Below are positions 2-52,734 of a stretch of 64,000 nucleotides of DNA, one piece after another. The notes beneath the pieces are model-generated. The model made no database searches. It had not been told where the DNA came from and saw only the letters and a program-made list of their open reading frames with translations. Position 1 is the first letter of the stretch. The number at the start of each line of letters is the position of its first letter. Where the stretch lies: the NCBI GenBank assembly GCA_027026255.1, contig JALVOT010000004.1, forward strand, positions 39,061-103,060, in the 5' to 3' direction. A program made the translations under genes and the position numbers. This stretch comes from a candidate division WOR-3 bacterium (lineage in GTDB: Bacteria > Hydrothermota > Tepidihabitantia > SM23-42).

Positions 2-241
2 AAATCTGGTTTATTCCCTTCAATCCGTGAATATCGTAATTTCTACGGCTTAACCAGAGAAAGGATTAAAAAGATAAAACCGCATGGTGTGATTATGCAT
101 CCCGGACCGACAAACCGGGGAATTGAAATTGACCCTGAGGTTGCCGATGGGAATAAATCACTCATTCTCAGACAGGTTAAGAATGGTGTAGCATTAAGAA
201 TGGCGGTTCTATTTATCCATGCAGGAGGAAAGATTGAATAG
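2..241 (+). CDS. pyrB: Aspartate carbamoyltransferase catalytic subunit, C-terminal fragment (5' end lies outside the window)
   Basis: Frame-2 translation reads ...[56 protein letters not shown], matching the ATCase C-terminal HPxP/R-G-E motif region. Stop is at 239-241. It lies directly upstream of pyrC and overlaps it by 23 nt. Confidence 0.75.
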
Positions 242-3039: not shown

Positions 3040-3320
3040 GTATTTTTTATCGGCTCTGACGAGTCAATTTGTAAAATTTTCTATATTTATCCGGGAAACT
3101 GTTGATAAAATGATTTTTCCGAGGAGGATAATCAAAATGTCTGCCCTGCCATTTATAATTGATACCCTCTCGCAAATATCAAAAATCCCTTCGTTCGCAT
3201 ACGACCCATCCAATACCATTTTTGTGAAATTAAAAAACCATTATTTCAAAAAACTTCCTGATTCAGTTGAAGAGAAAAAAGTCACAGCACCTTTTAGAAA
3301 ATCGGGCAAAAGTCGAAAAG

Positions 3321-5546: not shown

Positions 5547-5560
5547 AAGAGATTATAACC

Positions 5561-5580
5561 ATTGTCAAAACATTGTCAAG
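5561..5580. promoter_or_regulatory. Direct repeat ATTGTCAA-N3-ATTGTCAA in the divergent regulator/phosphatase control region (candidate operator)
   Basis: ATTGTCAAAACATTGTCAAG sits 15 nt upstream of the regulator start codon (minus strand). The repeat half-sites are 11 bp apart centre to centre. The same sequence is preserved in the duplicated control region at 8641-8660. Confidence 0.3.
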
Positions 5581-5849
5581 CATTTGTTTCAATTCGTGGA
5601 AAAAATTGAATATAAATTGATGGATAATGCGACACCATTTAAATATTGCCGCAACTATATGAAAAATAAAGGAAAAATTTTGACTGCACCGCCTCAACTT
5701 AACATCGTTTCAACTAATATTATTTTACAATTGATACCAATCCCTGACCAGATTGGTAAAGAAACAGCGTATGGGTGGGTAAAGCAGGACGGTGAATTTT
5801 TTAATGATGTGAAACAAACTAAATCCTTTAAAAGAAAGTGAGGTGAAAA

Positions 5850-8228
5850 ATGAAAAAAGGATTAATACAAGTATGGCTCCTGGGGTTTATATTAACAGGG
5901 TGTCTATATGGGGCTATTAACACCGGACCCTACCTGACTCCAGGGGATAATCCCAAGACCTCTGTCTGGGTTAACTGGAATACCACCAACGCAGCCCAGA
6001 GCAGAGTTGCTTATGGAACCAGTTCTTCTGCACTAAACGACACTGCAAGCAGTTCAGGAACAACTGAATTCCATCATGTATTACTGGATAATCTCAATCC
6101 AGGAACAGTATACTACTACAAAGTTCTCCCCAGTGGCGATGTCAAACATTTCCGAACTTTTCCCAATAGTGCTGACAGCTTCAACTTCATTGCTTTTGGC
6201 GATACCCGTGATGGTGATAATCCCCACCAGCAGATAATGAATCGAATGTGGGATTATGATTTTGTGCTTGTTACCCATTCTGGAGATTTAGTAGGTAGGG
6301 GCAATAGGTGGTCGGATTGGACCACATTCTTTGATATCGAAGATACTGTAATCAGCTATAAGCAGTTTTTACCAGCGGTGGGTAATCATGAATACCCCTA
6401 CACACAATTTGACAGTCTTTTCAAACTCCCTGAGGGAAATAATAACAACTACTATTCATTAGATTATGGAAACGCCCATTTTGTAGTCCTTAATACTCAG
6501 AGCGATATCTCGGCTGAGAGTACCTGGCTTGTAAACGACCTTCAGGCAGCAAATAACAATCCGAATATTGTCTGGAAATTTGCAAATTTTCACCGTCCAC
6601 CTTATTCGTCAGGTCCACACGGAAGTGCTTCGGATATAAGAGCAAAATGGTGTCCGGTATTAGAAGAATATGGAGTGGATATTGTTTTTAATGGTCATGA
6701 CCACGACTATGAGCGAAGTATTGATATCAATGGAACAGTCTATATTGTAACCGGTGGTGGTGGTGCACCCCTTTATAATCCGGACTCAAACTGGTGGACA
6801 GCACATGTAGAAGGCACTTATCATTTTTGTTTGATTGAAATAAGAGACGATGATCTGCTTTTGAAAGCAATCAAACGGGACGGCACTGTATTCGACACTC
6901 TGAGATTGCATAAAGCGGCACATGAACCCTGGATTACAATCACCAATACTGATATTAATGATCCATCTCCTGGTGGAAATGGCAATAACCAATTAGAACC
7001 AGGGGAAACAGCCAACCTTCTAATAACCCTGAAAAACCAGGGTGGTGTCCAAGCAACAAATACTAATGGGCTATTACGCACCAGTGATCCTTATATCACA
7101 ATAAATGATTCAACTACAACGTTCGGTAATATAGCACCTGATTCCCAGAAAACAAATAACGCGGATCCATTTAACATTACAGCATCAGATTCAACCCCAA
7201 CGGGTCATACAGTTCAATTTGAACTTATTGTTACTGCTAATGATTATAATGATACCCTTAACTTTGATATTATGGTCGGCACCAAAGATTATTATGTCTG
7301 GAACCCTGACCCTACTCCATCACCAGGACAGCAAATTGATTCAATCCTGACTGCCCTGGGATATTCTGGTGATTACGGCACATCTCTGGCATCAGATTTA
7401 ACCAAATACAAATCTGTCTTTGTATGCGTTGGAGTATACAGCAACAGTTACATGATAAGAGAGAACAGTCCTGAAGCATCAGCCCTTGCAGATTATCTCC
7501 AGAATCAGCACGGCAGGATGTATTTAGAGGGTGCTGATGTCTGGTACTGGGACCCAAACCATGGTGGTTATAATTTTAATCCGTTATTTGCCATTAATCC
7601 GACTGACGAAGGTACTAACGATATGGGTCCGGTGGTTGGCCAGTCTGGGAGATTTACTGCGGGAATGAACTTCAACTATAATGGTGAGAATAATTATATG
7701 GATCATATCTCACCTACGGGTAATGGATTTTTAATCTTTGTTGACGGTGATAATAATTATGATTGTGGTGTTGCGCATGATGCAGGGGATTATAGGACGG
7801 TTGGGACTTCATTTGAGTTAGGTGGTCTGGTGGATGGGTCTCCACCTTCAACCCGTGCTGCGCTGTTGGATTCGATAATGCATTTCTTTGGAATCTCTAT
7901 CAATCCAGGGGTTAAAGAGCAAAAAGACCTTTCAATGAAACCAGCAAAAACCCAGCTGACCCAACTCTATCCCAACCCGACAAACAGCAAAACTACGATT
8001 AAATTCCAGATTAACCATAATACTCCATTATCATTAAAAATCTATGATGCCATGGGTCGTCTGGTGCGAACGATAATAGACTCTCCCGACTGTAAACCAG
8101 GTTACTACACAGTCAAATGGGAAGGCAATGATAATAGAGGTAGAAAGGTATCAAACGGTATCTACTTCTTATCTTTCCAGACTGATACTCACAAAACACT
8201 ACGTAAGGTAATAGTCATAAAAAGGTAA
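5850..8228 (+). CDS. Secreted calcineurin-like metallophosphatase (purple acid phosphatase family) with a T9SS C-terminal sorting domain
   Basis: 792 aa. Signal peptide MKKGLIQVWLLGFILTGC. PAP N-terminal FN3-like domain (VAYGTSSSAL...GTVYYYKV). Metallophosphatase motifs GDTRDGDN, GNHE, GHDHDYER. The C-terminal roughly 80 aa (LYPNPTNSKTTIKF...NGIYFLSF...KVIVIKR) match the Por/T9SS C-terminal-domain pattern. Confidence 0.8.
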   Translation: MKKGLIQVWLLGFILTGCLYGAINTGPYLTPGDNPKTSVWVNWNTTNAAQSRVAYGTSSSALNDTASSSGTTEFHHVLLDNLNPGTVYYYKVLPSGDVKHFRTFPNSADSFNFIAFGDTRDGDNPHQQIMNRMWDYDFVLVTHSGDLVGRGNRWSDWTTFFDIEDTVISYKQFLPAVGNHEYPYTQFDSLFKLPEGNNNNYYSLDYGNAHFVVLNTQSDISAESTWLVNDLQAANNNPNIVWKFANFHRPPYSSGPHGSASDIRAKWCPVLEEYGVDIVFNGHDHDYERSIDINGTVYIVTGGGGAPLYNPDSNWWTAHVEGTYHFCLIEIRDDDLLLKAIKRDGTVFDTLRLHKAAHEPWITITNTDINDPSPGGNGNNQLEPGETANLLITLKNQGGVQATNTNGLLRTSDPYITINDSTTTFGNIAPDSQKTNNADPFNITASDSTPTGHTVQFELIVTANDYNDTLNFDIMVGTKDYYVWNPDPTPSPGQQIDSILTALGYSGDYGTSLASDLTKYKSVFVCVGVYSNSYMIRENSPEASALADYLQNQHGRMYLEGADVWYWDPNHGGYNFNPLFAINPTDEGTNDMGPVVGQSGRFTAGMNFNYNGENNYMDHISPTGNGFLIFVDGDNNYDCGVAHDAGDYRTVGTSFELGGLVDGSPPSTRAALLDSIMHFFGISINPGVKEQKDLSMKPAKTQLTQLYPNPTNSKTTIKFQINHNTPLSLKIYDAMGRLVRTIIDSPDCKPGYYTVKWEGNDNRGRKVSNGIYFLSFQTDTHKTLRKVIVIKR

Positions 8229-8240
8229 CAGCCATTATTA

Positions 8241-8285
8241 CTTAATACAGTCTGCGGGGCATTTTGCCCTGCAGACTGTATTAAG
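8241..8285. terminator. Long near-perfect hairpin (about 21-bp stem) downstream of phosphatase gene 1
   Basis: CTTAATACAGTCTGCGGGGCA-TTT-TGCCCTGCAGACTGTATTAAG. There is no U-tract on the plus strand. It could be a terminator, an RNA-processing site or a protein-binding palindrome. Confidence 0.4.
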
Positions 8286-8482
8286 TGGAATCACTCTCAT
8301 TCTTCGTAACCACAAAAATAGTTTCCTATCCATCCGGCATTATGGTTCTGTCTTCAAAAGTAACAACTCCCTGACCTCCAAATGTTACCCTCATTATTTG
8401 ATTTTTAAGTGTATAGACATATACCTTACAGGGACGCTGCATTGCATATCTCTGTTCAATAATAATCCGAGTGATTTCGTCA

Positions 8483-8626
8483 CCTTTTAATGAAATTTTT
8501 ATCTTTTGTTTTTTAAAATTTCTTTTGTCTGCCTGAGAATAAGCCAGGGCCTATTCTCTTTTAAAAACATAACCCTTTCTTCTATATCCACACCAAATCG
8601 ATTCCAGGGTTTATGATATGAATATT
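8483..8626 (-). pseudogene. Relic fragment of the HTH-TPR regulator gene carried along in the tandem duplication (lacks start codon and first about 47 codons)
   Basis: Positions 8483-8626 are about 95% identical to 5260-5405, i.e. codons about 48-95 of the 3321..5546 regulator on the minus strand. The segment corresponding to 5406-5546, which includes the ATG, is deleted in this copy. Homology then resumes in the shared control region (8627 onward matches 5547 onward). Confidence 0.5.
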
Positions 8627-8640
8627 AAGAGATTATAACC

Positions 8641-8660
8641 ATTGTCAAAACATTGTCAAG
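8641..8660. promoter_or_regulatory. Second copy of the ATTGTCAA-N3-ATTGTCAA direct repeat, upstream of phosphatase paralog 2
   Basis: Identical 20-mer to 5561-5580, inside the duplicated control region. Confidence 0.3.
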
Positions 8661-8925
8661 CATTTGTTTCAATTCGTGGAAAAAATTGAATATAAATTGA
8701 TGGATAATGCAACACCATCTAAATATTGCCGCAACTATATGAAAAATAAAGGAAAAATTTTGACTGCATCACCTCAGCTTAACATTATTTTAACTATTAA
8801 TTATATAATTAATACCAATTCTCGACCAGATTGGTAAAGAAACAGCGTATGGGTGGGTAAAGCAGGACGGTGAATTTTTTAATGATGTGAAACAAGTTAA
8901 ATCCTTTAAGAAAGTGAGGTGAAAA

Positions 8926-11502
8926 ATGAAAAAAGGATTAATACAAGTATGGCTCCTGGGGTTTATATTAACAGGGTATCTATATGGAGGTATTAACACC
9001 GGACCCTACCTGACTCCAGGAAGTAATCCCAGGACCTCTGTCTGGGTTAACTGGAATACCAATAACGCAGCCCAGAGCAGAGTCGCTTATGGAACCAGTT
9101 CTTCTGCACTAAACGACACTGCAAGCAGTTCAGGAACAACTGAATTTCATCATGTATTACTGGATAATCTCAATCCAGGAACAGTATACTACTACAAAGT
9201 TCTCCCCAGCGGCAATGTCAAATATTTCCGAACTTTTCCCAATAGTGCTGACAGCTTCAACTTCATTGCTTTTGGCGATACCCGTGATGGTGATAATCCC
9301 CACGAGCAGATAATGAATCGAATGTGGAGTTATGATTTTGTGCTTGTTACCCATTCTGGAGATTTGGTAGGTAGTGGCAGCAGCTGGTCAGATTGGACCA
9401 CATTCTTTAATATCGAAGATACTGTAATCAGCTATAAGCAGTTTTTACCAGCGGTGGGTAATCATGAATCCCCCTTTACACAATTTGACAGTCTTTTCAA
9501 ACTCCCTGAGGGGAGTAATAACAACTACTATTCATTAGATTATGGAAACGCCCATTTTGTAGTCCTCAATACTGAGATGAATTCGAGCGGTATCTCGGCT
9601 GAGAGTACCTGGCTTGTAAACGACCTTCAGGCAGCAAATAACAATTCGAATATTGTCTGGAAATTTGCAAATTTTCACCGTCCACCTTATTCATCAGGTC
9701 CACACGGAAGTGCTTCGGATATAAGAGCAAAATGGTGTCCGGTATTAGAAGAATATGGAGTGGATATTGTTTTTAATGGTCATGACCACCTCTATGAGCG
9801 AAGTATTGATATCAATGGAACAGTCTATATTGTAACCGGTGGTGGTGGTGCACCCCTTTATAATGGAGACTCAAGCTGGTGGACAGCATATTCAGAAGGC
9901 ACTTATCATTTTTGTTTGATTGAAATAAGAGATGATGATCTGCTTTTGAAAGCAATCAAACGGGACGGCACTGTATTTGACACCCTGAGATTGCATAAAC
10001 CAATACATGAACCCTGGATAAAGGCACTCAGCTATAATATTACTGATCCTCCACAAGGTGGAAATGGTAATGGTATATTAGAACCTGGTGAGACCGGGAA
10101 AATGGTGGTAAACATAAAAAATATTGGTGGTGCAGGTGCCTATAATACAACCGGGACCTTGGTATCCTATGATAACTATGTTACAGTGCAGAATACAACC
10201 TATAACTTTGGTGACCTGGCTCCGGGTGATACCACATCGAATTCAGGCAGTCCGTTTTCACTCGTGGTTCACGATTTAACCCCTCAGGGACATGGTGCAA
10301 AGATTGGGTTAGTGCTCCATGCGGATGGTAAAAATGATACCGTAGACTTTGATGATACACTATACTATACAATTACAATCGGCACTCCCCCAGACCCCAC
10401 AATCATCTTTGGAGACGACTTTGAATACAGTGGTGGAGTTGATAGTTTTCCACATTACTGGAATGCAACTGGAAACTGGGCGCGCTCAACCCAGAATTCC
10501 CATTCTTCAAGCCATTCTGCATATAGTGGTGCACCTCTTGATAATGCAACAACCTTAACCATGAAAAATGGAGTTGACCTGACCCCATTCAGTGACCCCC
10601 GACTCAGTTTCTGGCACCGTTATGATTTTGCTTCAGCAATGTTTATGGATGGCTGTGCAGTTCAGATCTCTACTAACGGCGGTTCTTCCTGGGGAGACCT
10701 CTGGACCTTTAACTGGAATAACGGTGAAACCATTCCCTGGACTGAATTTGCCCTGCCTCTTTCTTCCTATATCAGCAACAATGTCAAGGTTAGATTTATG
10801 ATTGACGCCAATACAATGTTCCAGGACCGTACTGATTGGTTCATCGATGATTTTATGTTATTTACTCCAACCGACAATGAGCCGCCTTATTTTACAAATA
10901 CTACGGTCTGGCCGGATACTAATTATACTGGCCCATTTCCTGTGCAGTCAAAGATTACCGATAAAAGTGGTGTCGACCAGGCAAAACTCTATTATCGGGT
11001 TAATTCAGGTTCCTGGCAGGAACTGACAATGTCAGCGGGGAGCAATAATATCTATTCAGCAAGCATTCCTGCCCAGTCCTCGGGTGATAAGATTGACTAT
11101 TATTTATGGGCCCGGGATAAGTGGCTTACTCCGAATGCGGGATGTGACCCGATTGGTGCACCGGATCGTGGATATTACTCATTCAATCTGAAGATCGGAA
11201 TCAATGAAGGTCAGGCGGGCAGAATTCAGTTTATGCCGATAATCACCAATCCTACGCGGGGTCCGGTAAAGATCAGATTCAGCATTCCGGAGAAGAATAA
11301 GGTCAATCTGGCAGTCTATGATGTAACCGGCAGAAAGGTGAAAACAATATTCAATAAAAAAATAGCCCCTGGTGAATATCAGATAACCTGGAATCGTCTT
11401 GATGAAAAACATAGGCAGATTTCTACAGGCATCTACTTCTTGAAGTTTTCTGTTCCCGATGCAAAGTATGAAAAGATAGAGAAGGTTGTTCTTTTGAAAT
11501 AG
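8926..11502 (+). CDS. Secreted calcineurin-like metallophosphatase paralog with a divergent MAM/galactose-binding-like middle region and a T9SS C-terminal sorting domain
   Basis: 858 aa. The first about 345 aa are near-identical to the 5850..8228 product and carry the same metallophosphatase motifs. It then diverges (..CAVQISTNGGSSWGDLW..). The C-terminus GPVKIRFSIPEKNKVNLAVYDVTGRKV...GIYFLKFS...KVVLLK is T9SS C-terminal-domain-like. Confidence 0.8.
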   Translation: MKKGLIQVWLLGFILTGYLYGGINTGPYLTPGSNPRTSVWVNWNTNNAAQSRVAYGTSSSALNDTASSSGTTEFHHVLLDNLNPGTVYYYKVLPSGNVKYFRTFPNSADSFNFIAFGDTRDGDNPHEQIMNRMWSYDFVLVTHSGDLVGSGSSWSDWTTFFNIEDTVISYKQFLPAVGNHESPFTQFDSLFKLPEGSNNNYYSLDYGNAHFVVLNTEMNSSGISAESTWLVNDLQAANNNSNIVWKFANFHRPPYSSGPHGSASDIRAKWCPVLEEYGVDIVFNGHDHLYERSIDINGTVYIVTGGGGAPLYNGDSSWWTAYSEGTYHFCLIEIRDDDLLLKAIKRDGTVFDTLRLHKPIHEPWIKALSYNITDPPQGGNGNGILEPGETGKMVVNIKNIGGAGAYNTTGTLVSYDNYVTVQNTTYNFGDLAPGDTTSNSGSPFSLVVHDLTPQGHGAKIGLVLHADGKNDTVDFDDTLYYTITIGTPPDPTIIFGDDFEYSGGVDSFPHYWNATGNWARSTQNSHSSSHSAYSGAPLDNATTLTMKNGVDLTPFSDPRLSFWHRYDFASAMFMDGCAVQISTNGGSSWGDLWTFNWNNGETIPWTEFALPLSSYISNNVKVRFMIDANTMFQDRTDWFIDDFMLFTPTDNEPPYFTNTTVWPDTNYTGPFPVQSKITDKSGVDQAKLYYRVNSGSWQELTMSAGSNNIYSASIPAQSSGDKIDYYLWARDKWLTPNAGCDPIGAPDRGYYSFNLKIGINEGQAGRIQFMPIITNPTRGPVKIRFSIPEKNKVNLAVYDVTGRKVKTIFNKKIAPGEYQITWNRLDEKHRQISTGIYFLKFSVPDAKYEKIEKVVLLK

Positions 11503-11535
11503 ACATCCTTACACAAAACTACTCTCCGTTCTAAA

Positions 11536-11570
11536 GGAGGGGGCAGGCATCTGCCTCCTCCTTTTTTATT
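11536..11570 (+). terminator. Rho-independent terminator after phosphatase paralog 2
   Basis: GGAGGGGGCAGGCATCTGCCTCCTCC hairpin followed by TTTTTTATT. Confidence 0.6.
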
Positions 11571-11630
11571 AACATCCCGGTTCCCCGGACACAGCCTTGA
11601 CTTATCCACCTTTATTAGTTATTATTTAGA

Positions 11631-12554
11631 ATGAAATTTGTCGGTCTTGATGTCGGAGGAACATTTATAAAATCGGCGCTGGTTATCAACGGCAGGGTTA
11701 AAAAATTTCAGGTTATTCCGAGTCTGGCAAGCAAGGGACCGGAATACTCAATCAATCAGATAATCAGAGCAATTGATGTTTTGGTTAAAGACACTCAGGG
11801 GATTGGGATTGGTATCGCCGGGATTACCGATGCCCGGGCGGGTGTGGTAAAGACATCACCAAATTTAAAGGGCTGGGATGATATCCCTCTGGCAGCAACC
11901 TTAAAACAAAGATTCAAAAAACCGGTGAAGATTATCAATGATGTAGATGCAATCTGCCTTGGTGAATGGTATTACGGGCGAGCCCGTGGATACAGGAATG
12001 TCTTCTTATTCACGGTTGGCACCGGGGTCGGTGGTGCAGTAATTTGTGAAGGAAAATTGGTTCTTGGTGCCAATGGTTTTGCTGGAGAGCTGGGCCATAC
12101 TGTCATAAATTTTAACGGACCGAAATGCTCCTGCGGAAATCACGGATGTCTGGAAAGATATGTTGGGGCGCGATATATTATACGCTACGCCAGAAGGTTA
12201 TTAAAAAAGCATCCCAGTCGATTGTCTCAGTATAAAAAACTTACTCCGGCAATCATCGCCCGGGAAGCAAAAAATGGTGATAGCGTAGCCAAGGATGTCT
12301 TCACCCGGGTCGGCTTCTATCTCGGGGTGGGGATAACAAATATTATCGCCCTGTTTGACCCGGAATTGATTATCATATCAGGTGGAATCTCAAGGGCAGG
12401 AAAGGTATTATTTGACCCGATAAGAAAGACGGTTCGACAAAAACTCCTGGGTGAGCAATACCGTAACTACAGGATTGTGGCTTCAGCCCTGGGTGATTAT
12501 GCCGGGATCATGGGTGCTGCTTTACTATTTAATAAAAGGATTTGCCCGGACTGA
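11631..12554 (+). CDS. ROK-family sugar kinase (glucokinase-like)
   Basis: 307 aa. N-terminal GLDVGGT ATPase motif and the ROK zinc motif CSCGNHGCLE. Confidence 0.75.
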   Translation: MKFVGLDVGGTFIKSALVINGRVKKFQVIPSLASKGPEYSINQIIRAIDVLVKDTQGIGIGIAGITDARAGVVKTSPNLKGWDDIPLAATLKQRFKKPVKIINDVDAICLGEWYYGRARGYRNVFLFTVGTGVGGAVICEGKLVLGANGFAGELGHTVINFNGPKCSCGNHGCLERYVGARYIIRYARRLLKKHPSRLSQYKKLTPAIIAREAKNGDSVAKDVFTRVGFYLGVGITNIIALFDPELIIISGGISRAGKVLFDPIRKTVRQKLLGEQYRNYRIVASALGDYAGIMGAALLFNKRICPD

Positions 12555-12567
12555 GCCGGGCAAATCC
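12538..12567. terminator. Bidirectional 12-bp-stem hairpin between the convergent ROK kinase and hsp20 genes
   Basis: GGATTTGCCCGG-ACTGAG-CCGGGCAAATCC. A T-rich tract follows on the minus strand, where it would act as the hsp20 terminator. Confidence 0.45.
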
Positions 12568-12588
12568 TGGGTGGATGATTAGGAGGTA

Positions 12589-13029
12589 TTATTTCACTTC
12601 AACTTCAATCTCTTTGGGTTTAAGAATCTCAGGTTTTGTCAGGGTTATCGTAAGCACACCGTCTTTATAGTTCGCCTTCACCTTATTCGGTTCAATATCC
12701 GATGGAAGAGTAATTGCCCGCTGGAATTTGCCGTAGGTGCGTTCGATCCTGTGGTATGTTTTATTGTTAGTCTCCTTCTCCCGCTTCTTCTCGCCGGAGA
12801 TGGTCAGCAGATTTCCCCTTACCGAGACCTTGATATCCTCTTTTTTCAGACCCGGTACTTCAGTCTTTACGATAATATTTTCATCATCTTCTTCAATATC
12901 AAGTACCGGTCTGAAGAAATCGTCGTTCCATTTTGGATATTCAAAGAAATCTTTGAATAACTGCCCCATATCATCCACCATATCGGCTAAATCTGTAAAT
13001 GGTCTCCAGGTTGTTAATGTCTTACCCAT
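12589..13029 (-). CDS. Small heat shock protein, Hsp20/alpha-crystallin family
   Basis: 146 aa. ACD signature: VKTEVPGLKKEDIKVSV...LTISGEKK...GKFQRAITLP...YKDGVLTITLTK. Confidence 0.85.
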   Translation of the reverse strand: MGKTLTTWRPFTDLADMVDDMGQLFKDFFEYPKWNDDFFRPVLDIEEDDENIIVKTEVPGLKKEDIKVSVRGNLLTISGEKKREKETNNKTYHRIERTYGKFQRAITLPSDIEPNKVKANYKDGVLTITLTKPEILKPKEIEVEVK

Positions 13030-13128
13030 ATTACATCACCTCCTTTCTTCCCCTTTTGCCATTTAGACAATTTTTTTTGCTAATAGTTTATTGATTTTTT
13101 CCTCTTTTGAAGGCTGAAAATCAGGCAG

Positions 13129-13156
13129 TTGACAGTACCCGATAATTAGATATAAT
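13129..13156 (+). promoter_or_regulatory. Sigma-70-like promoter (TTGACA-16-TATAAT) upstream of the RnfB-like gene
   Basis: TTGACA at 13129-13134 and TATAAT at 13151-13156, with a 16-nt spacer. The ATG is at 13165. Confidence 0.45.
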
Positions 13157-13164
13157 AGAACCCT

Positions 13165-14181
13165 ATGCAGATTACCGCACTACTCAAATCGATTCTTGGC
13201 CTGGGCGGACTGAGTCTGGTCTTTGGAGTTATCCTTGCTCTTGCCTTCAAAAAACTCGCCGTGAAGATGAGCGAAATTGAACTGGGGATTCGGGAGATTT
13301 TACCCGGGGCGAACTGTGGTGCCTGTGGTTTTCCCGGGTGTGATGCCTATGCCCATGCCCTGGCTGAAAAGACCGGCAGGACACCGCCCAATCTCTGCAC
13401 CGTGGGTGGCTCGAATACTGCAAAGAAGATTGGTGAAATTTTGGGAGTTGAGGTTGCAGAGATGGAACCGATGATCAGTGTGCTTCGATGCAAAGGCGGT
13501 AAAGAGGAATCAGCAGAAAAGTTCGACTATATCGGACCGGGCGATTGCCGCAGTAATTATATTCTACTGGGTGGAAACAAGGCCTGTAATTATGGTTGTC
13601 TTGGAGGAGGCCATTGTGTTACGGTCTGTCCATTCAGGGCAATTCGGATGGGTGAAAACCATCTTCCCATAATTGACCCGGATAAATGCACCGGCTGTGG
13701 CATCTGTGTCAGGGAGTGCCCGCGTCAGGTGCTTGAACTCATTCCCCGCTCCCAGTTAATCTATCTCGCCTGTAAGTCCCTTGATAAAGGTAAGGATGTT
13801 AAACAGGTCTGCAAGGTGGGCTGTATAGGCTGCACCCTCTGTGTAAAGGTTTGTCCTTATGAAGGTGCAATTGAGATGAAGGGAAACCTGCCCCGGATGG
13901 ACTATGAAAAGTGCACATCCTGTGGTATCTGTTTTAATAAGTGTCCGGCAAAATCATTTATTGACCGTGCTCCAGCCCGACCTTATGCAATCATATCACC
14001 TCAGTGCAACGGCTGCGGCGAATGTGTTAAGGTCTGCCAGTTCAAGGCGATTGAAGGTGAACCCGGCAAAAGGCATACCGTAATAAAGGATAAATGTATC
14101 GGGTGCGGCAGATGTTTTGAAGTCTGTCCGATTAAGGTTATTACAATGGCCGGTGCACTCGGTTATGCTGAGGCCGCATAG
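13165..14181 (+). CDS. RnfB-like polyferredoxin (electron transport complex subunit B family) with multiple 4Fe-4S motifs
   Basis: 338 aa. N-terminal membrane anchor plus the CGACGFPGCDAYAHAL RnfB-type cluster region. Five CxxCxxCxxxCP-type motifs follow. No other rnf genes are adjacent. Confidence 0.7.
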   Translation: MQITALLKSILGLGGLSLVFGVILALAFKKLAVKMSEIELGIREILPGANCGACGFPGCDAYAHALAEKTGRTPPNLCTVGGSNTAKKIGEILGVEVAEMEPMISVLRCKGGKEESAEKFDYIGPGDCRSNYILLGGNKACNYGCLGGGHCVTVCPFRAIRMGENHLPIIDPDKCTGCGICVRECPRQVLELIPRSQLIYLACKSLDKGKDVKQVCKVGCIGCTLCVKVCPYEGAIEMKGNLPRMDYEKCTSCGICFNKCPAKSFIDRAPARPYAIISPQCNGCGECVKVCQFKAIEGEPGKRHTVIKDKCIGCGRCFEVCPIKVITMAGALGYAEAA

Positions 14182-14222
14182 TTGTCGGATTCCAGAAGTT
14201 TTTTATTGATTACACAAAACAG

Positions 14223-15032
14223 ATGAAGTTGTTCTATGCCCGGGCATCATTAGAAGACGCCCGGATTGTCGTATGTGGACTACCGGTTGATAAAACATCT
14301 TCATTTTTACCCGGAACAAAATTTGGTCCAATGTACATAAGATACTGCACTGAAAACATTGAATCATTTTCCCCATATCAGGAAAATGACCTTCAAAAAT
14401 TAAAAATCTGTGACCTTGAAGACTTGAAACTTGAAGACCAGGACTGGTATGCGGAAACCAGAAAGTTTGTTGAGAAGCATTTTAATCCTGATAAAAAATT
14501 TATCTTTCTCGGCGGCGAGCATACGATTACCCTGCCCATAATCGAAGTTTTAAGAAAATACTACAAAAAATTTTCTATTATCCATCTTGACGCACATGCC
14601 GACTTAAGGGATGAGTATCTGGGTAATAAAATCTGCCATGCTACAGTTATGCGCCGGGCCGGAGATATAATCGGTTTAGAAAATATCTACCAATTCGGTA
14701 TCCGCTCCGGAACCGGGCAGGAATTTAAATTGCATAAAAATTTATATAAATTTGAGGTATATCAACCTTTACGGAAAATCATTGATAAAATCCCCGGGCC
14801 TGTATATCTAAGCATTGATGTTGATGTTGTCAATCCTGCAGTGCTGCCTGCAGTTTCCACCCCGGCATCCGGGGGTATATCATTTCAGGAGATGATTGAT
14901 TCTATTCTGTTATTTAAGAATAGAGAAATCATATCTCTGGATATTGTCGAATTTAATCCCCTGGCTGGAAACCCCTATGCCTCAGGAACCGCGGTGGCGG
15001 AGATTTTACGGGAGCTTATTCTTATTCTGTAA
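14223..15032 (+). CDS. speB: Agmatinase/arginase-family ureohydrolase
   Basis: 269 aa. Ureohydrolase Mn-binding motifs GGEHTIT, HLDAHADL and SIDVDVVNPA. Confidence 0.75.
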   Translation: MKLFYARASLEDARIVVCGLPVDKTSSFLPGTKFGPMYIRYCTENIESFSPYQENDLQKLKICDLEDLKLEDQDWYAETRKFVEKHFNPDKKFIFLGGEHTITLPIIEVLRKYYKKFSIIHLDAHADLRDEYLGNKICHATVMRRAGDIIGLENIYQFGIRSGTGQEFKLHKNLYKFEVYQPLRKIIDKIPGPVYLSIDVDVVNPAVLPAVSTPASGGISFQEMIDSILLFKNREIISLDIVEFNPLAGNPYASGTAVAEILRELILIL

Positions 15033-15047
15033 AAGACGGCCTCACTT

Positions 15048-15250
15048 GGGGTCAAATCTTCACAATTCACAATTGATAGAGCCGAATATTTGTTTGATTT
15101 TGTTTCGGTTTAACATACGTTCTGATGACGAGGTTATATTGCGGCGTTGTTTCAAGATATTTTATCAGTATAATGGTATTACCAACTTACGATTGGTGAG
15201 TTAATAGTATGTCACATATATAAACTTGTGAATTGTGAAGATTTGACCCC
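15048..15250. mobile_element. MITE-like element, family B, copy 1 (203 bp, 25-bp perfect terminal inverted repeats)
   Basis: Left end GGGGTCAAATCTTCACAATTCACAA at 15048-15072. Right end TTGTGAATTGTGAAGATTTGACCCC at 15226-15250. The internal sequence is the reverse complement of the internal sequence of the copy at 60666-60866. It has no ORF. Confidence 0.6.
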
Positions 15251-15421
15251 AAATACGGGTGTTTGCGATCGGTGTATGTATGTCAGAAAAAGATAGAGAG
15301 GGCAAAGGTTGGGTTGAATGAGGTTTTGATAAGGCCGGAAGGTTTTTCTGCTGGTGTCTATTTTGTGCGTTTTAAGGCGGGTAATTATCAGGCAGTTAAA
15401 AAGGTGGTGCTTGTAAGATAG
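15251..15421 (+). pseudogene. 3' remnant of a T9SS C-terminal-domain cargo gene, truncated at the MITE-B boundary
   Basis: Frame translation ...VYVCQKKIERAKVGLNEVLIRPEGFSAGVYFVRFKAGNYQAVKKVVLVR* carries the terminal SGVYF-x-R-x-KAG...KKVVL pattern of Por/T9SS sorting domains. The frame is closed by a TGA inside the MITE's inverted repeat, so there is no start codon or upstream body. Confidence 0.4.
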
Positions 15422-15481
15422 AAAGTCCTGAGGGTATAGAAAACTGTTTTGAAGATATCTTAAATATTTCTATTTAATTCA

Positions 15482-15509
15482 TTGACATTACAGATGAATT
15501 TATTATAAT
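15482..15509 (+). promoter_or_regulatory. Sigma-70-like promoter (TTGACA-16-TATAAT) immediately upstream of the alpha/beta-hydrolase gene
   Basis: TTGACA at 15482-15487 and TATAAT at 15504-15509. The annotated GTG start at 15516 is only 7 nt downstream. That implies either a leaderless transcript or a later true start codon. Confidence 0.4.
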
Positions 15510-15515
15510 TTAAAT

Positions 15516-18032
15516 GTGGAACTTCTATTTATCTTAATCATCTTCAGTAATTCCCATTTCCTGCCCACAATATCTGACACGATAGTCATTGACCGCTGGT
15601 CCTATTTAGGACCATTCTCGATTGGACCGCGAGAAGGGATAACCGGATTTGATAAAGAAATCCTTTATAATAAAAATTTTTCTCCATCAATGGAAAAAGT
15701 ATATCCCGGTCTGTTGATGCCGGGTGGAGATATCCGGTGGAAACAGCTACAGACCGATAAAGAAGAAGTCAAACTTGCATACAATGAGGTTGAATGGGAT
15801 TCTATCCAGGATTATTATGGTATCCCGGGCATAATATGTGCTACATATTTCTATGGAGAATTTTCTACTCAGAAGCATTGCCGTGCCTTAGTATACGCAA
15901 AGGGTATCGGTTCATTTATGCTTAATGGCCGACGCTATTTAGGGGACCTGTATCGTCAGAAAAATTTTATGGTGCCGGTGGTTCTGCATAAGGGCAAGAA
16001 TAGAATCATCATCAAGGATACCGGCTTTAAAGAACACAATTTTCGATTCAGATTGGTTCCGGTAGCGCAGCCGATATTGATTTTAAAGAATAACATAACC
16101 AAACCCGATTTTATAAGGAATGGGGAAAAACAGTATTGGCTTGGTATACCCATTTTGAATACTACATCAAAAAGGCTATACAATATAAAAATAGAACTGA
16201 ATGGCGAGGCGATTTCAGAGACAGAAAAGACCATTAAAAGTATCGTCCCATTATCAGTCATCAAATTGCCGATTATGATTGAAAAAAATAATAATATTTT
16301 GCAAGGTGAGACTACAGATATTAATATCACTCTTAAATGGAATGATTATACAATTAAAGATAAGATTCAAATTGCGATAAAGGATATGGGTGATATTCAG
16401 ATAAAAACATTCCGCTCTAAGATTGACAATTCCTGCCAGTATTATGCACTGCGTGTTCCAGCCCGGTTTAACAGAGATTCATCTTACGGTCTGATTATGA
16501 CCTGCCATGGTGCCGGGGTAAGAGCCGGGAACATGGTCAAATCATATACCCGGAAAGATTGGGCATTTATCGCGGCACCCACCAATCGGGGAAGATTTGG
16601 TTTTGACTGGCAGGACTGGGGAATGCTCGATTTCTTTGAGGTGCTCGAGGATGTAAAGGCCCGTTTTAAAATTGACCCAAATCGAATCTATTTAACCGGC
16701 CATTCAATGGGTGGCCATGGGGTCTGGCATATCGGCCTTTCCTTTCCGGATCGGTTCTCCGTAATTGCGCCATCAGCGGGGTGGACTTCATTTCGACTCT
16801 ATATCCCCTGGTTTCTTCAGAAGGCGGAACTCTTCGGCGATCCCGGGTTATTAAAAATTCGGGATATGGCATTGGTGCAGGACAACCCTTTAATCCTCTT
16901 AGAGAATGGTTATAATCTATCCATATACATTCTTCAGGGTGGTGTAGATAACAATGTTCCCCCTATTCAGGCGAGATTCTTCAACAAGTATCTCAGTGAT
17001 TTTCACAGAAACTTTATCTACAAGGAGATTGAAGGAAAAGGACACTGGTGGGATATCGATTCTACACCCGGGATTGATTGTGTGGACCAAAAGGAACTGA
17101 TGGATTTTCTGAAATCATCCCGGCGTACCCCCTATCCCAAAAGGATTGTATTCAAGACGGCGGATATTGACTATTCCAATGCCGCCTACTGGATAAGGAT
17201 TGACCAACTTGAACATCTATATCGTATTGCCCGGGTGGATATTCAGGTAAAAAAGAAAAATTTTATAGAGGCGGAACTGAATAATATCCATAGTTTTACC
17301 GTATTCCTGAATGACCGGATTGTTTCCCCGGGAAATGTAATGTTTAAGATTAACGGACGGAAAATCAAGTATTTGTATCGTGCTAAATGTGAAATTGGTT
17401 TTATCAAAGAAGAAAAAGGCTTTGTTATCAATAAAGAAAAAAACAAGGGGCTGCATAAGAAAAAAGGGCTGTATGGTCCGATAAAAAAGGCATACTTCAC
17501 TCCATTTATTCTTATTTATGGAACAATTGGAGATTCTTCGTCAACTGAAGAGAATCTTGCCCAGGCACGCTGGCAATCATATCTCTGGTATTATCGGGGT
17601 AATGGATTTGTTGAAATCATTCCGGATACTGAAGTTACCGATCAAATTATCAAAGACTACAATCTGATTCTCTTCGGAAATACAGAAACAAATTTTATCT
17701 TAAAGTGGATCAATTATCAACTGCCCATTCATATGGGTGAAGAGTATATCGTCTTTGATAATAAAAAGTTAAAGGACAAAAATCTTGTATTTGTAGAGGT
17801 CTATCCCAACCCCTTAAACCCCCGACATCTGGTTCTGGTCTATTCACCAATCTCCAGGCCGGCAGAAAAATTTATGGGTATATTCTCACCACTCTATTCA
17901 GGTTCGGGTTTGCCCGACTATATTATCTATGATGAATCGGTTTTAAAATATGGCCGGGCTGGAGTAAAGGCCCTGGGATTTTTTGATAAAGACTGGAAAT
18001 TCAATCCCCATTCAGGGTTTATCTCTGATTAG
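15516..18032 (+). CDS. Large alpha/beta-hydrolase-fold protein (putative esterase/peptidase with a GHSMGG nucleophile elbow)
   Basis: 838 aa. LTGHSMGGHGVWHIG is a G-x-S-x-G serine hydrolase motif inside a predicted alpha/beta fold. The N-terminal about 250 aa and C-terminal about 300 aa have no recognisable motif. The start codon is uncertain. Confidence 0.6.
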   Translation: MELLFILIIFSNSHFLPTISDTIVIDRWSYLGPFSIGPREGITGFDKEILYNKNFSPSMEKVYPGLLMPGGDIRWKQLQTDKEEVKLAYNEVEWDSIQDYYGIPGIICATYFYGEFSTQKHCRALVYAKGIGSFMLNGRRYLGDLYRQKNFMVPVVLHKGKNRIIIKDTGFKEHNFRFRLVPVAQPILILKNNITKPDFIRNGEKQYWLGIPILNTTSKRLYNIKIELNGEAISETEKTIKSIVPLSVIKLPIMIEKNNNILQGETTDINITLKWNDYTIKDKIQIAIKDMGDIQIKTFRSKIDNSCQYYALRVPARFNRDSSYGLIMTCHGAGVRAGNMVKSYTRKDWAFIAAPTNRGRFGFDWQDWGMLDFFEVLEDVKARFKIDPNRIYLTGHSMGGHGVWHIGLSFPDRFSVIAPSAGWTSFRLYIPWFLQKAELFGDPGLLKIRDMALVQDNPLILLENGYNLSIYILQGGVDNNVPPIQARFFNKYLSDFHRNFIYKEIEGKGHWWDIDSTPGIDCVDQKELMDFLKSSRRTPYPKRIVFKTADIDYSNAAYWIRIDQLEHLYRIARVDIQVKKKNFIEAELNNIHSFTVFLNDRIVSPGNVMFKINGRKIKYLYRAKCEIGFIKEEKGFVINKEKNKGLHKKKGLYGPIKKAYFTPFILIYGTIGDSSSTEENLAQARWQSYLWYYRGNGFVEIIPDTEVTDQIIKDYNLILFGNTETNFILKWINYQLPIHMGEEYIVFDNKKLKDKNLVFVEVYPNPLNPRHLVLVYSPISRPAEKFMGIFSPLYSGSGLPDYIIYDESVLKYGRAGVKALGFFDKDWKFNPHSGFISD

Positions 18033-18435
18033 ATAAAATATAATACATATCCACTTTTTGTCCCGGTTTTTTGTAAACTATGTTATAATATAGCCGGGGG
18101 GCGTCTCGCCCCGAGGCAGGGCGCCTGGCGAGTATGCAACGAGTTGAGAATGACAAACCTCCAGCGGGCGGCGGGAACGCCGCCCACGCTGAAAAAAATG
18201 GAAACGCCGCCCGCACTGAAAAAAAATGGAAACGCCGCCCACGCTGAAAAAAATTGAACCGGACGAAAATAGCAGAGAAATTTTTCAAATGACCAATAAA
18301 ATAATATAAAAAAAGTAAAACGAAGTTGTTGAGTATTTTTCGTCTTAGTTTAATGATTTCAGGGAAGTTTATTCTGTCCGGAATACCGTTGCAATTAATC
18401 CAGGAGGCATAATGAAAAAAGTGGAGAGGAATCAG
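18024..18435. mobile_element. MITE-like element, family A, copy 1 (about 410 bp), between the hydrolase gene and fhs
   Basis: The right terminal inverted repeat AAAAAGTGGAGAGGAATCAG at 18416-18435 is the exact reverse complement of the left repeat CTGATTCCTCTCCACTTTTT seen intact in copies 2 and 3. Here the left repeat is split: CTGATT at 18024-18029, a 19-nt insert, then TCCACTTTTT at 18049-18058. The interior shares about 90% identity with 33939-34247. It contains the GGGGCGTCTCGCCCC hairpin, a GC hairpin capped by a GGAA tetraloop (18162-18191), and a 27-bp tandem repeat. Confidence 0.55.
18176..18258. repeat. Tandem 27/28-bp repeat (AACGCCGCCCRCRCTGAAAAAAATGGA) x3 inside MITE-A copy 1
   Basis: Three head-to-tail units with no spacers, so it is not a CRISPR array. 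Copy 2 carries 2 units and copy 3 carries 1 unit. Confidence 0.5.
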
Positions 18436-18483
18436 AAAACTAATATCTTGACATCGTTTGATATTAATCTATAATCAGTCATT

Positions 18484-20154
18484 ATGAAGACAGATTTGGA
18501 GATTGCCCAGGAAGCAAAATTATTACCAGTAACTGAATTGGCCCGGCAATTAAATATTCCTGAAGACTTTGTTATCCCCTGTGGTCGATACAAGGCGAAA
18601 ATTTCATTAAGGGTTTTTAATCAAATCAGGGCACGAAATAGAAAAAGATTAATTCTGGTTACCGCAATGACACCAACCCCAAGGGGTGAGGGAAAGACTA
18701 CGGTCTCAATCGGTCTGAGTATGGCATTGAACCGAATCGGTAAGTCATCCATTGTTGCCCTGCGTGAGCCCTCCCTGGGCCCGGTCTTCGGGATTAAAGG
18801 CGGCGCTGCCGGCGGTGGATATTCCCAGGTGTTGCCTATGGAGGATATAAATCTCCATTTTACCGGTGATATCCATGCGGTTGGTTCGGCCCATAACCTG
18901 CTGGCGACAGTCCTTGATAACCATATCCATTTTGGTAATAAACTTAATGTTGATGAACGCGAAATCGTCTTTACGCGGGTTATGGATATGAACGACCGCA
19001 GCCTGCGCAATATCGTTGTTGGGCTGGGCGGTAAGAAGAACGGTCCGGCACGGGAAGATAGTTTTATGATTACTGCCGCGAGCGAGGTGATGGCGATTCT
19101 GGCATTATCAGAATCGCCCGATGAACTGAAAGAACGTCTTGATAAAATCTTTGTTGCCTATGATATGGCAGGCGGTCCGGTATTTGCAAAGAACTTTGGT
19201 ATTACCGGAGCAATGGCGGTGCTTTTAAAAGATGCAATTAAACCGAACCTTGTTCAGACCATCGAACACACCCCGGCATTTATCCATTGTGGTCCTTTTG
19301 CCAATATCGCCCACGGCACCTGTAGTGTAGTATCCATAAAACTGGCACAAAGATTATGCGATTATACTGTGGTTGAGGCGGGCTTTGGTTCAGACCTGGG
19401 GGCGGAAAAATTTGTTGATATTGTATGTCGTAATGCCCGGCTTCAGGTCGATGCCGCTGTGGTGGTGGCAACAATCAGGGCATTGAAGGTGCATGGAGGC
19501 GCGCCCAGGGATGATTCTGGAAATTCCCTCGGTTATATAGAAAAGGGAATTGATAATTTAGAGAAACATATTGAAAATATGAAAAAATTTAATATCCCGA
19601 TAGTCATCGCCCTGAATATTTTTAAAGACGACGGCGAGGATGAGATAAAGTTCGTCCAGGACTATTTTTCTTCAAAAAATATTCTGCTTGCCCCGGTTGA
19701 GGTTTTTGAAAAGGGCTCAGCCGGTGCTGCAGAACTTGCAAAGTTTGTTGTTGAAGCGGCAGAAAAAAGAGAAGAGTCCGTTATCCGCCAAATCTATGAA
19801 CTTGATGATTCGATTGAAAAAAAGATTGAAAAAGTAGCATTTGAAATATACGGTGCAGAAAGGGTTGTCTATACCCCGGGTGCAGAAAAATCTATCAGGC
19901 GGATAAATAAACTGGGGCTGGATAAGTTGCCAATCTGCATTGCCAAAACATACAGCTCTCTTTCTGATAATCCCAAACTTCTGGGTCGACCAAGAAATTT
20001 TAAAATTACAATCCGGGGAATAAATATCTCATCCGGGGCAGGATTTCTCGTGCCCTTAACCCGTGAGGTAATGCTGATGCCCGGTTTACCCCGACAACCC
20101 AATGCAGTAAACATCGGATTTGACAGCAACGGCAGGATTATGGGTTTGTTTTAA
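18484..20154 (+). CDS. fhs: Formate--tetrahydrofolate ligase
   Basis: 556 aa. Near-canonical FTHFS N-terminus MKTDLEIAQEAKLLPVTELARQL, the P-loop TPTPRGEGKTT, and conservation throughout. Confidence 0.9.
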   Translation: MKTDLEIAQEAKLLPVTELARQLNIPEDFVIPCGRYKAKISLRVFNQIRARNRKRLILVTAMTPTPRGEGKTTVSIGLSMALNRIGKSSIVALREPSLGPVFGIKGGAAGGGYSQVLPMEDINLHFTGDIHAVGSAHNLLATVLDNHIHFGNKLNVDEREIVFTRVMDMNDRSLRNIVVGLGGKKNGPAREDSFMITAASEVMAILALSESPDELKERLDKIFVAYDMAGGPVFAKNFGITGAMAVLLKDAIKPNLVQTIEHTPAFIHCGPFANIAHGTCSVVSIKLAQRLCDYTVVEAGFGSDLGAEKFVDIVCRNARLQVDAAVVVATIRALKVHGGAPRDDSGNSLGYIEKGIDNLEKHIENMKKFNIPIVIALNIFKDDGEDEIKFVQDYFSSKNILLAPVEVFEKGSAGAAELAKFVVEAAEKREESVIRQIYELDDSIEKKIEKVAFEIYGAERVVYTPGAEKSIRRINKLGLDKLPICIAKTYSSLSDNPKLLGRPRNFKITIRGINISSGAGFLVPLTREVMLMPGLPRQPNAVNIGFDSNGRIMGLF

Positions 20155-33832: not shown

Positions 33833-33938
33833 CTTCTTTTTTCAACTATTTTTATTCCCTGGTTCAATTAAATAACATTTTTTAAAATATTATAGCAAAT
33901 TATAATAAAAATTTTGCTTTTGTCAAGGTAAGTCTTTC

Positions 33939-34247
33939 CTGATTCCTCTCCACTTTTTGTCTCGGTTTTTTGTAAACTATGTTACAATATAGCCGGGGGG
34001 CGTCTCGCTCCGAGGCGGGGACGCCGCCCGCGCTGAGAAAAATGGAAACACCGCCCGCCCTAAAAAAAATTGAACCGGGCGAAAATAGCAGAGAAATTTT
34101 TCAAATGACCAGTAAAATAATATAAAAAAGTAAAACGAAGTTGTTGAGTATTTTTCGTCTTATTTTACTAATCTCAAAGAAGTTTATTCTGTTCAGAATA
34201 CCGTTGCAATTAATCCGGGAGGCATAATGAAAAAAGTGGAGAGGAGT
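33939..34247. mobile_element. MITE-like element, family A, copy 2 (309 bp)
   Basis: Intact left terminal inverted repeat CTGATTCCTCTCCACTTTTT at 33939-33958. Right end AAAAAGTGGAGAGGA at 34231-34245. It shares about 90% identity with copy 1 but carries an internal deletion of about 65 bp (the GGAA-capped hairpin region) and only 2 tandem-repeat units. Confidence 0.55.
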
Positions 34248-34455
34248 CAAAAGTCTTTCTTCAAAAAACATCCTGCACAGGCAGTTTCTGAATTCCCTGT
34301 GTTTTATCCCGGAGAAAAATCTCAAATATGTATTATTATCTCATTCTATACACCTGTAATGAATTTCTGATTGTGCTGTATCGGGATTTAATCATATTTT
34401 GTGGAAATAAAAAAGGGACGGGCATAACCCGTCCCTTTAATTATTCTAATCAGTG

Positions 34456-49884: not shown

Positions 49885-49953
49885 TTTATAATTTGTGGAA
49901 TGAATAAGCCCGGGGGCGTCCCGCCCCGAGCCGTTTCGCCCGGACAAAATTGT

Positions 49954-52459: not shown

Positions 52460-52483
52460 TTAAAACCTCCTTGTTAGTTTATT

Positions 52484-52734
52484 CTAACTAAATAATTGAA
52501 AATTTCAAGGGGGTAATCAGCTGATTCCTCTCCACTTTTTGTCCCGGTTTTTTGTAAACTATGTTACAATATAGCCGGGGGGCGTCTCGCCCCGAGACAG
52601 AGCGCCTGGCGAGCTGCAGGAGTTTCTGAAACGAGTTAAGAATGACAAACCTCCAGCGGGCGGCGGGGACGCCGCCCGCGCTGGTAAATTGAAAATTTCA
52701 AGGGGGTAATCAGAAAGGCAGGGAAGACGTATTT
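52484..52734. mobile_element. MITE-like element, family A, copy 3 (truncated; flanked by two copies of a 27-bp degenerate right-end-like repeat)
   Basis: Left terminal inverted repeat CTGATTCCTCTCCACTTTTT at 52511-52530. The shared core runs through the GGGGCGTCTCGCCCC hairpin and the GGGA-capped GC hairpin, then stops after one repeat unit. AATTGAAAATTTCAAGGGGGTAATCAG occurs at 52484-52510 and again at 52708-52734. Both end in AATCAG like the canonical right repeat. Confidence 0.5.

Follow-up and report, generated by a model that had tools for sequence, protein, structure and literature searches.

In a 64,000-nucleotide stretch of a candidate division WOR-3 genome (contig JALVOT010000004.1 of assembly GCA_027026255.1; this whole stretch is referred to below as the window, and coordinates are counted from its first letter), we find that the copies of a short repeat, family A, are miniature transposable elements with inverted repeats (MITEs) whose position is locked to neighbouring promoters. 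Outward from one tip of the element, a hexamer resembling TTGAC(A/T) usually starts after exactly 12 nucleotides (nt), which corresponds to the 9-bp target-site duplication and 3 further nt. We regard this locking to promoters as a new and statistically solid observation; its mechanism is something that we infer, and promoter-directed insertion is the best reading. We consider it likely that the family A repeats are copies of a non-coding MITE, derived from a DDE-type insertion sequence (IS) and mobilised in trans, with the 9 bp adjoining TTGAC(A/T) as its target. The initial annotation of this DNA, made from the letters alone, had described the repeat family and missed both the 9-bp duplication of copy 2 and the fixed 12-nt distance from tip to -35 hexamer.

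One element tip usually lies at a fixed distance from the -35 hexamer

The three copies, their flanks and the promoters beside them are:

18050..18435, plus strand: copy 1; right side at full length; on the left, the inverted repeat is without its outer 10 nt, lost where a rearrangement breakpoint lies
18416..18435, minus strand: terminal inverted repeat on the right of copy 1; 20-mer without mismatch, with its tip (18435) facing the fhs promoter
18436..18447, plus strand: spacer from the copy 1 tip to the -35 box; 12 nt, the first 9 in the position of a target duplication
18448..18475, plus strand: fhs promoter, TTGACA-16-TATAAT, 12/12 consensus; outside the element, conserved in element-free relatives; fhs ATG at 18484
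33939..34250, plus strand: copy 2; 312 bp, the sole structurally complete copy; left repeat (33939-33958) exact, right repeat (34231-34250) with two mismatches
33930..33938, no strand: left target-site duplication of copy 2, 9 bp, AAGTCTTTC
34251..34259, no strand: right target-site duplication of copy 2, 9 bp, AAGTCTTTC
33899..33926, minus strand: promoter of an HNOB-like gene (33832-33509, minus strand), TTGACA-16-TATAAT; 12 nt separate the left tip of copy 2 from the start of the promoter's -35 box
52521..52686, plus strand: copy 3; retains the left inverted repeat, the core and hairpin 2, and ends past the GC stem with the right repeat gone
52494..52520, no strand: left 27-bp direct repeat flanking copy 3; perfect, contains the -35 hexamer of the neighbouring promoter
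52687..52713, no strand: right 27-bp direct repeat flanking copy 3; perfect
52481..52508, minus strand: promoter of a 166-amino-acid gene (52459-51959, minus strand), TTGAAA-16-TAGAAT; 12 nt separate the left tip of copy 3 from the start of the promoter's -35 box

Within the window the 12-nt offset is found at the right tip of copy 1, on the fhs side, and at the left tips of copy 2 and copy 3, the last with TTGAAA. Scans with the 20-mer that forms the element end, CTGATTCCTCTCCACTTTTT, over one genome per species and the metagenomes of the Joint Genome Institute gave 22 loci (numbered with L), most of them from WOR-3, Stahlbacteria or unclassified genome bins. The same offset recurs at L002, L003, L004, L006, L007, L008, L010 and L022, and also at L028, which makes 12 independent sites in total; this set includes more diverged ends and one site found later (L028). 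TTGA is invariant in 12/12, and at 10 of the 12 a TATAAT-like -10 box lies 16-17 nt on, with the start of a gene or transfer RNA (tRNA) 45-190 nt further.

The statistical test was made on an unselected set of 24 unique ends with at most two mismatches, distal ends and chance matches included. Nine of these match TTGACA at 5/6 positions or better at offset 12, six of them perfectly; at the other offsets between 0 and 49 this level is never reached by more than one end. With a background frequency of 0.0064, the excess at offset 12 has a P of about 2e-14. Exact 20-mer matches in L001 (inside a 1571-amino-acid open reading frame (ORF)), L009, L012, L017/L020 and L021 look like chance or coding matches, and they stayed in the denominator of this statistic. 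As a control, the second MITE family of the window, family B, shows no such relation and lies at no fixed distance to promoters.

The 9-bp duplications have no common consensus except that they are A-rich. Each element has one promoter-adjacent end, and within a single cargo family this can be either end (L003 versus L007); therefore orientation is free and the target is one-sided. A test made once the hypothesis existed, on about 309 kb more WOR-3 DNA around fhs homologs, gave a single new site (L028, common to L030), with TTGAAA at offset 12. The L028/L030 site sits between convergent genes, which overlap in L044, and its hexamer is therefore probably not a promoter. A second truncated element, at the promoter of a transfer-messenger RNA (tmRNA) gene (L019/L030), has lost the inverted repeat on that side and keeps the flank repeat and the 3 nt plus TTGACA.

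Genes adjoining the elements include fhs, tRNA, tmRNA, a glgC-like gene, a gcvH-like gene and several lipoproteins. Family A neither carries nor donates the adjacent promoters, because these are mutually non-homologous, lie outside the duplications and, in the case of fhs, are present in element-free relatives; the fhs promoter thus predates the element. This disposes of the earlier suggestion that copy 1 might supply fhs with its promoter. A 38-bp inverted repeat that would include the promoter was also considered and rejected, since the duplications are flush with the 20-mer and both the 12-nt spacers and the promoters are non-homologous. About 37 promoter candidates with at least 5/6 matches in each hexamer occur in the window, many of them perfect TTGACA-16-TATAAT, and three are occupied by family A. 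Near-consensus promoters are unusually frequent throughout the window. In addition, fhs and several other element-adjacent genes start 5-8 nt past the -10 box with no Shine-Dalgarno sequence (18470-18486; L003, L007, L024), and their transcripts look like leaderless mRNAs. A literature search with incomplete journal coverage found no bacterial IS or other element targeted to the -35 box, and no report of MITEs in WOR-3.

Family A is mobile

Target-site duplications flush with the 20-mer are present at copy 2 (9/9), L007 (9/9, AGAGCCGCT) and L010 (8/9). The closest available relatives, also WOR-3 (L024-L026), have fhs proteins that are 83-84% identical and carry TTGACT-17-TATAAT at the same place before fhs, with no element. 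Family A occupies several non-homologous loci (three in the window) and differs in presence between relatives at the fhs site. At copy 2, the neighbouring hybrid histidine kinase has no ortholog in the relatives and no syntenic element-free relative was found; at copy 3, a search with the neighbouring Cd/Zn P-type ATPase gave no syntenic relative either. The same 20-mer ends bracket unrelated cargo of 115-600 bp in other WOR-3 and Stahlbacteria bins and in metagenome contigs, and this cargo carries its own 9-bp duplications (L007, L010). The initial annotation had called family A a non-autonomous mobile element, and the inverted repeats, the perfect 9-bp duplication, the absence from relatives and the shared ends on other cargo all support that view. 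It had also allowed that the copies might be conserved syntenic intergenic regions; the copy upstream of fhs, the only comparable one, is absent from relatives.

The commonest type of cargo with these ends starts with TGAAATACTAATTTGTCATTGCGAGG and holds a palindromic GTCATTGCGAGG...GCAATCTCC module (L005, L006, L010, L019, L028, L030). At L028/L030 a lone element end is joined to part of an AbiEii-like toxin gene. At L011, L013 and L018 an exact 20-mer end lies beside a pstB that lacks its N-terminal half, with repeat-like DNA between them, and this arrangement may represent insertion into the gene. Viral contigs contained 0 matches to the inverted-repeat 20-mer or to one variant of it, and a search of plasmid and phage collections in distant mode gave no match to copy 1.

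Architecture of the copies

The shared core aligns across all three non-coding copies in the window, and BLAST between copies gives 87-97% identity over shared segments, as expected from the initial description of three copies with a common core. The 20-mer CTGATTCCTCTCCACTTTTT occurs four times in the window, where dinucleotide-preserving shuffles predict 0: exactly at 18416-18435 (minus), 33939-33958 (plus) and 52521-52540 (plus), and with two mismatches at 34231-34250 (minus). The right end of copy 1 is thus the exact reverse complement of the left ends of copies 2 and 3, as had been noted. The copies are 166-396 bp long, which fits the MITE size class of about 100-600 bp, and their internal ORFs differ or are interrupted between copies, leaving no conserved coding capacity. 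The internal features of copy 1 are:

18071..18095, plus strand: A/T box; conserved, holds an extended -10-like TGTTATAAT (18081-18089) reading into the element
18098..18112, plus strand: hairpin 1, GGGGCG-TCT-CGCCCC
18162..18191, plus strand: hairpin 2; 12-pair GC stem, interrupted by a 2-nt bulge and capped by a GGAA loop
18176..18258, plus strand: tandem repeat; 27/28-bp unit, 3.0 units, each repeating the 3' arm of hairpin 2

The A/T box recurs at 33970-33994 in copy 2 and 52552-52576 in copy 3; its TGTTATAAT is a possible relic of the promoter of a parent IS. Hairpin 1 is also present at 52579-52593 in copy 3 and, with one mismatch, at 33997-34011 in copy 2. At 18162-18191 and 52654-52683 lies the GC stem, whose loop is GGAA or GGGA. 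All three shared features had thus been identified correctly. For the stem, the 12 pairs and the position also stand, with a 2-nt bulge in addition; in copy 2 the 5' arm is deleted. The reported series of 3, 2 and 1 tandem units holds as well (3.0 in copy 1, about 2 in copy 2, 1 in copy 3).

The boundaries needed more revision. Terminal inverted repeats had been described for all copies, and this is true of copy 2 only; copies 1 and 3 keep just one intact repeat each. The left end of copy 1 had been placed at 18024/18025, where the letters ctgatt (18025-18030) are in fact the end of the upstream S9-peptidase gene, with its stop codon at 18030-18032; homology to the other copies begins at about 18050 (TCCACTTTTT). 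Copy 3 spans 52521-52686 rather than 52484-52734; its whole right half is missing. Copy 1 has no recognisable target-site duplication, and copy 3 has the atypical 27-bp flank repeat instead. The right-hand 27-bp repeat of copy 3 starts with AAATTGAA, which also follows the tandem array in full-length copies, and for this reason a microhomology-mediated event is plausible as the origin of this arrangement. At the right ends of copies 1 and 2, GGAGG-N4-ATG reads outward through the inverted repeat into ORFs of 20 and 47 amino acids; we do not regard these as genes because they are unrelated to each other beyond the inverted repeat.

Search for a transposase and proposed family assignment

In agreement with the initial annotation, no transposase was found in the window: Pfam searches of 41 window ORFs of at least 100 amino acids, with nine that lacked clear matches rerun at a relaxed E-value, gave no transposase domain, and homology identifies the remaining 13 among the 54 long ORFs as ordinary genes. 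A tblastn search with the IS50 transposase against the window and 26 fetched loci returned nothing, and none of the fetched loci has paired ends 1-2 kb apart. The sole transposase-like feature of the window is the HTH_psq/HTH_23 N-terminus of a 741-amino-acid TPR protein (3321-5546, minus strand), which has no DDE domain. The gene for this protein adjoins a pair of metallophosphoesterase-like paralogs (5850-8228 and 8926-11502); the DNA upstream of them is duplicated as well (5258-6800 and 8480-9884).

The family A ends and the 9-bp duplication point to an IS4-family transposase of the IS50/IS10 kind, itself not found here; enzymes of these subgroups are DDE transposases encoded by a single ORF and bear the Y(2)R(3)E(6)K motif. 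In the survey of De Palmenaer et al. 2008 (PMC2266710, Table 1), the IS10 subgroup has ends that start with CT and 9-bp direct repeats, and the IS50 subgroup has ends of the form CW------Y---CA-A--W- with direct repeats of 8-9 bp; both occur mostly in Proteobacteria (PMC2266710). The family A end starts with 5'-CT(G), fits 6/7 of the specified IS50-subgroup positions and is identical to the Tn5 outside end, whose sequence was verified on a Tn5-bearing plasmid, at 12/19 positions. In these ends and in its 9-bp duplication family A resembles IS50 and IS10 (Tn5, Tn10) and the MITEs that derive from them; it differs from them in that no transposase was found, so that its membership is unproven, and in that its hosts are WOR-3 and Stahlbacteria rather than Proteobacteria. 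The targets of IS10 and IS50 have a weak symmetric consensus in and beside the 9 bp and are not known to involve a one-sided hexamer 3 bp away. Other families with duplications of about 9 bp (IS1, the IS903 group of IS5, IS256 and ISAs1) are a poorer fit, since their ends begin with G or CAGGG. MITEs are common, and one with IS4-like ends is in itself an ordinary kind of element, of which this is a new member.

Genome rearrangement, family B and neighbouring features

Copy 1 sits at a rearrangement breakpoint (window 2-18050 compared with L024-L026). In the relatives, a block running from a beta-lactamase-fold gene to a phosphoribosyltransferase gene lies between the S9-peptidase gene and fhs, as does the block OTCase-DHOase-AIRS...ROK-HSP20. 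In the window most of the former is inverted at 2-13029, upstream of the S9-peptidase gene, and the OTCase...HSP20 block is likewise inverted and upstream of that gene. The S9-peptidase gene is now flanked by a family B MITE (15046-15252) and the truncated end of copy 1, and the breakpoints coincide with both. The family B features are:

15046-15252 and 60665-60866, opposite orientations: MITE-like copies of family B; 207 bp, 89% identity, perfect 27-bp inverted repeats TTGGGGTCAAATCTTCACAATTCACAA
52743-52767: partial family B end, adjoining copy 3

A family-B-like CGAGATTTGA(T/C)CC motif also occurs near family A elements in L003, L005 and L022. Between convergent genes at 49865-49962, two 30-nt direct repeats, GTTTYGCCCGGACAAAATWGTTTATAATTT, flank a hairpin, GGGGCGTCCCGCCCC. 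This is the related mini-hairpin of the initial annotation; it exists, at 49913-49927 and not at 49903-49923, and together with the TATAAT upstream it resembles the start of the family A core. The Cd/Zn-type P-type ATPase gene beside copy 3 (52850-54721) has its best homologs (73-75%) in Atribacterota and Methanophagales bins and not in WOR-3, and it was probably acquired horizontally.

Discussion

We propose that an IS4-like transposase encoded elsewhere would bind the 20-bp inverted ends of family A, excise the element and integrate it, in the cut-and-paste manner of Tn5 and Tn10, through staggered cuts 9 bp apart, which would give rise to the 9-bp target-site duplication. The same ends would mobilise unrelated cargo in many WOR-3 and Stahlbacteria genomes, presumably in trans. 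The target would be 9 bp located 3 bp upstream of TTGAC(A/T), normally the -35 box of a sigma-70-type promoter. With a spacer of 16-17 nt, the duplicated 9 bp would then occupy about -46 to -38 and the inserted end about -66 to -47, and the promoter from -46 on, including the duplicated 9 bp next to the -35 box, would stay intact, making this a safe site in a gene-dense genome. The many near-consensus promoters (about 37 in 64 kb) would therefore amount to many harmless landing sites. Direct reading of the hexamer by the transposase would be the most likely route, favoured because TTGA is invariant and because of the L028 site. As for the broader claim that DDE transposons of WOR-3 and Stahlbacteria with IS50-like ends choose their site by the -35 hexamer and integrate into the 9 bp at about -47 to -39, either reading TTGAC or contacting sigma or RNA polymerase, we put its chances at about even.

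Several observations weigh against this interpretation. The sample is small, with 12 sites mostly found through exact match to one 20-mer, and some elements depart from the pattern: L003 420-534 has neither promoter nor duplication, L005 has its hexamer at offset 14, and L011 and L014 also deviate. One inverted repeat is missing from copy 1 and one from copy 3. There is only one element-free comparison, at fhs, where the 12 nt beside the -35 box have diverged at 83% protein identity and the exact pre-insertion sequence is hidden. The family assignment rests on 20 bp of end and a duplication length, with no autonomous copy found, and beyond CTG the family A and Tn5 ends agree at 9/16 positions, with a shuffle P of 0.017 that is only suggestive. 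Finally, all the sites are insertions that survived selection, which could have sharpened a weaker insertion bias.

This last point leads to the main rival to target selection, namely selection on random insertions. Here insertion would be roughly random, and selection would keep those copies whose 20-bp end, acting as a regulator site or promoter aid, sits at -66 to -47. The exact phasing to the -35 box is indeed the pattern of an upstream activator site, the 20-mer is unchanged between lineages whose fhs proteins share only about 70% identity and whose cargo is unrelated, and MITEs that affect neighbouring promoters are known, such as MITEAba12 (PMC6382973). However, the promoter-distal end is equally conserved, the adjacent genes are functionally unrelated and form no coherent set, and the fhs promoter is near-consensus already without the element. 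Very few copies are found elsewhere, so that other insertions would have to be purged very efficiently, and at L028/L030, between convergent genes where no promoter is expected, the hexamer is still at offset 12. We therefore regard selection on random insertions as unlikely, and the corollary that the MITE would spread a regulatory site shares its low probability. For these reasons we infer that the fixed offset reflects target selection rather than later selection.

Target selection could also work by tethering, in which a transposase bound to the RNA polymerase holoenzyme, through sigma region 4 or else the C-terminal domain of alpha, integrates just upstream, in the manner of Ty3 and TRE5-A. 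The asymmetric target, with the hexamer on one side of an element in either orientation, would be unusual for a symmetric transposase dimer and is typical of tethered integration. The duplicated 9 bp coincide with the -46 to -38 segment, beside which sigma region 4 sits in established promoter geometry, and 10/12 sites are complete promoters. Tethering should, however, tolerate poor -35 boxes, and TTGA is invariant in 12/12 sites including weak or non-promoter contexts (L022, L028), the L028 site lying between convergent genes; we thus consider tethering quite unlikely.

Two explanations leave promoter targeting aside altogether. Family A might be a conserved small RNA gene or 5' leader that is not mobile, an idea raised by the GC hairpins and GNRA loop in the initial annotation. 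The extended -10-like TGTTATAAT, with GC-rich hairpins after it although the genome is AT-rich, is suggestive, and copy 3 folds with a z-score of -2.2. Copy 1 gives only -0.7, though, so that the folds are not clearly better than those of shuffled sequence, and in copy 2 the main hairpin is without its 5' arm. A search of Rfam 15 over the whole window at gathering score found only tRNAs, and with E up to 10 on copy 1 only noise (best element score 19 bits against a cut-off of 50); the Rfam hit that could have identified family A as a known RNA did not materialise. The inverted ends and target duplications, the absence upstream of fhs in relatives and the varying orientation relative to neighbouring genes also speak against a fixed RNA gene, which we judge very improbable. 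Still less credible to us are repetitive extragenic palindromes (REPs) or bacterial interspersed mosaic elements (BIMEs) spread by a REP-associated tyrosine (RAYT, Y1) transposase. The GC-rich hairpins and the related intergenic hairpin at 49913-49927 would suit them, but REPs are short imperfect palindromes, with neither terminal inverted repeats of 20 bp at a spacing of 300-400 bp nor 9-bp duplications, and the window ORFs have no RAYT-like Y1_Tnp domain.

Promoter-directed insertion of family A has partial parallels in known systems. MITEAba12 of Acinetobacter, mobilised by ISAba12, is likewise short and non-autonomous, with inverted repeats, 9-bp duplications and a presence in several species. 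It has potential effects on neighbouring transcription and outward-facing promoters of its own, and it occupies varied sites with a preference for AT-rich DNA (PMC6382973), whereas the promoter beside family A is external and older and the position is fixed to the base. The closest functional likeness in placement, and it is functional only, is to Ty3, Ty1 and Dictyostelium TRE5-A (PMC5911963), which insert close upstream of a transcription unit, at a set distance, and leave the gene intact, a safe site. Those are eukaryotic retroelements guided by transcription-factor or polymerase contacts at genes of RNA polymerase III, while family A is a bacterial DDE-type DNA element. Tn7 at attTn7 and the IS elements that insert into REPs (PMC1525189) similarly use a conserved, harmless and widespread landmark as target; for family A that landmark would be the -35 hexamer. 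Putative mobile promoters (PMC3488235) also are repeated intergenic sequences beside the starts of unrelated genes, but there the promoter is inside the repeat. In family A it lies outside the repeated sequence, and the -35 box, spacer and -10 box vary by site and are outside the duplication.

What is new is that a bacterial DDE element is linked to the -35 box with single-base precision, at 12 independent insertions in several uncultured lineages. The element at the breakpoint beside fhs implies that family A also contributes to changes in gene order. A concrete search target follows, an IS4-like transposase with these ends and perhaps with an extra DNA-binding or polymerase-binding domain. 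If promoter-directed insertion is true, it would add a new mode to the safe-site targeting known in bacteria and give prokaryotes a DNA-transposon counterpart to the promoter-directed integration of Ty3 and TRE5-A. It would offer a route to put DNA beside promoters without destroying them and a promoter marker in phyla without experimental genetics, and it would account for the persistence of such elements in compact genomes.

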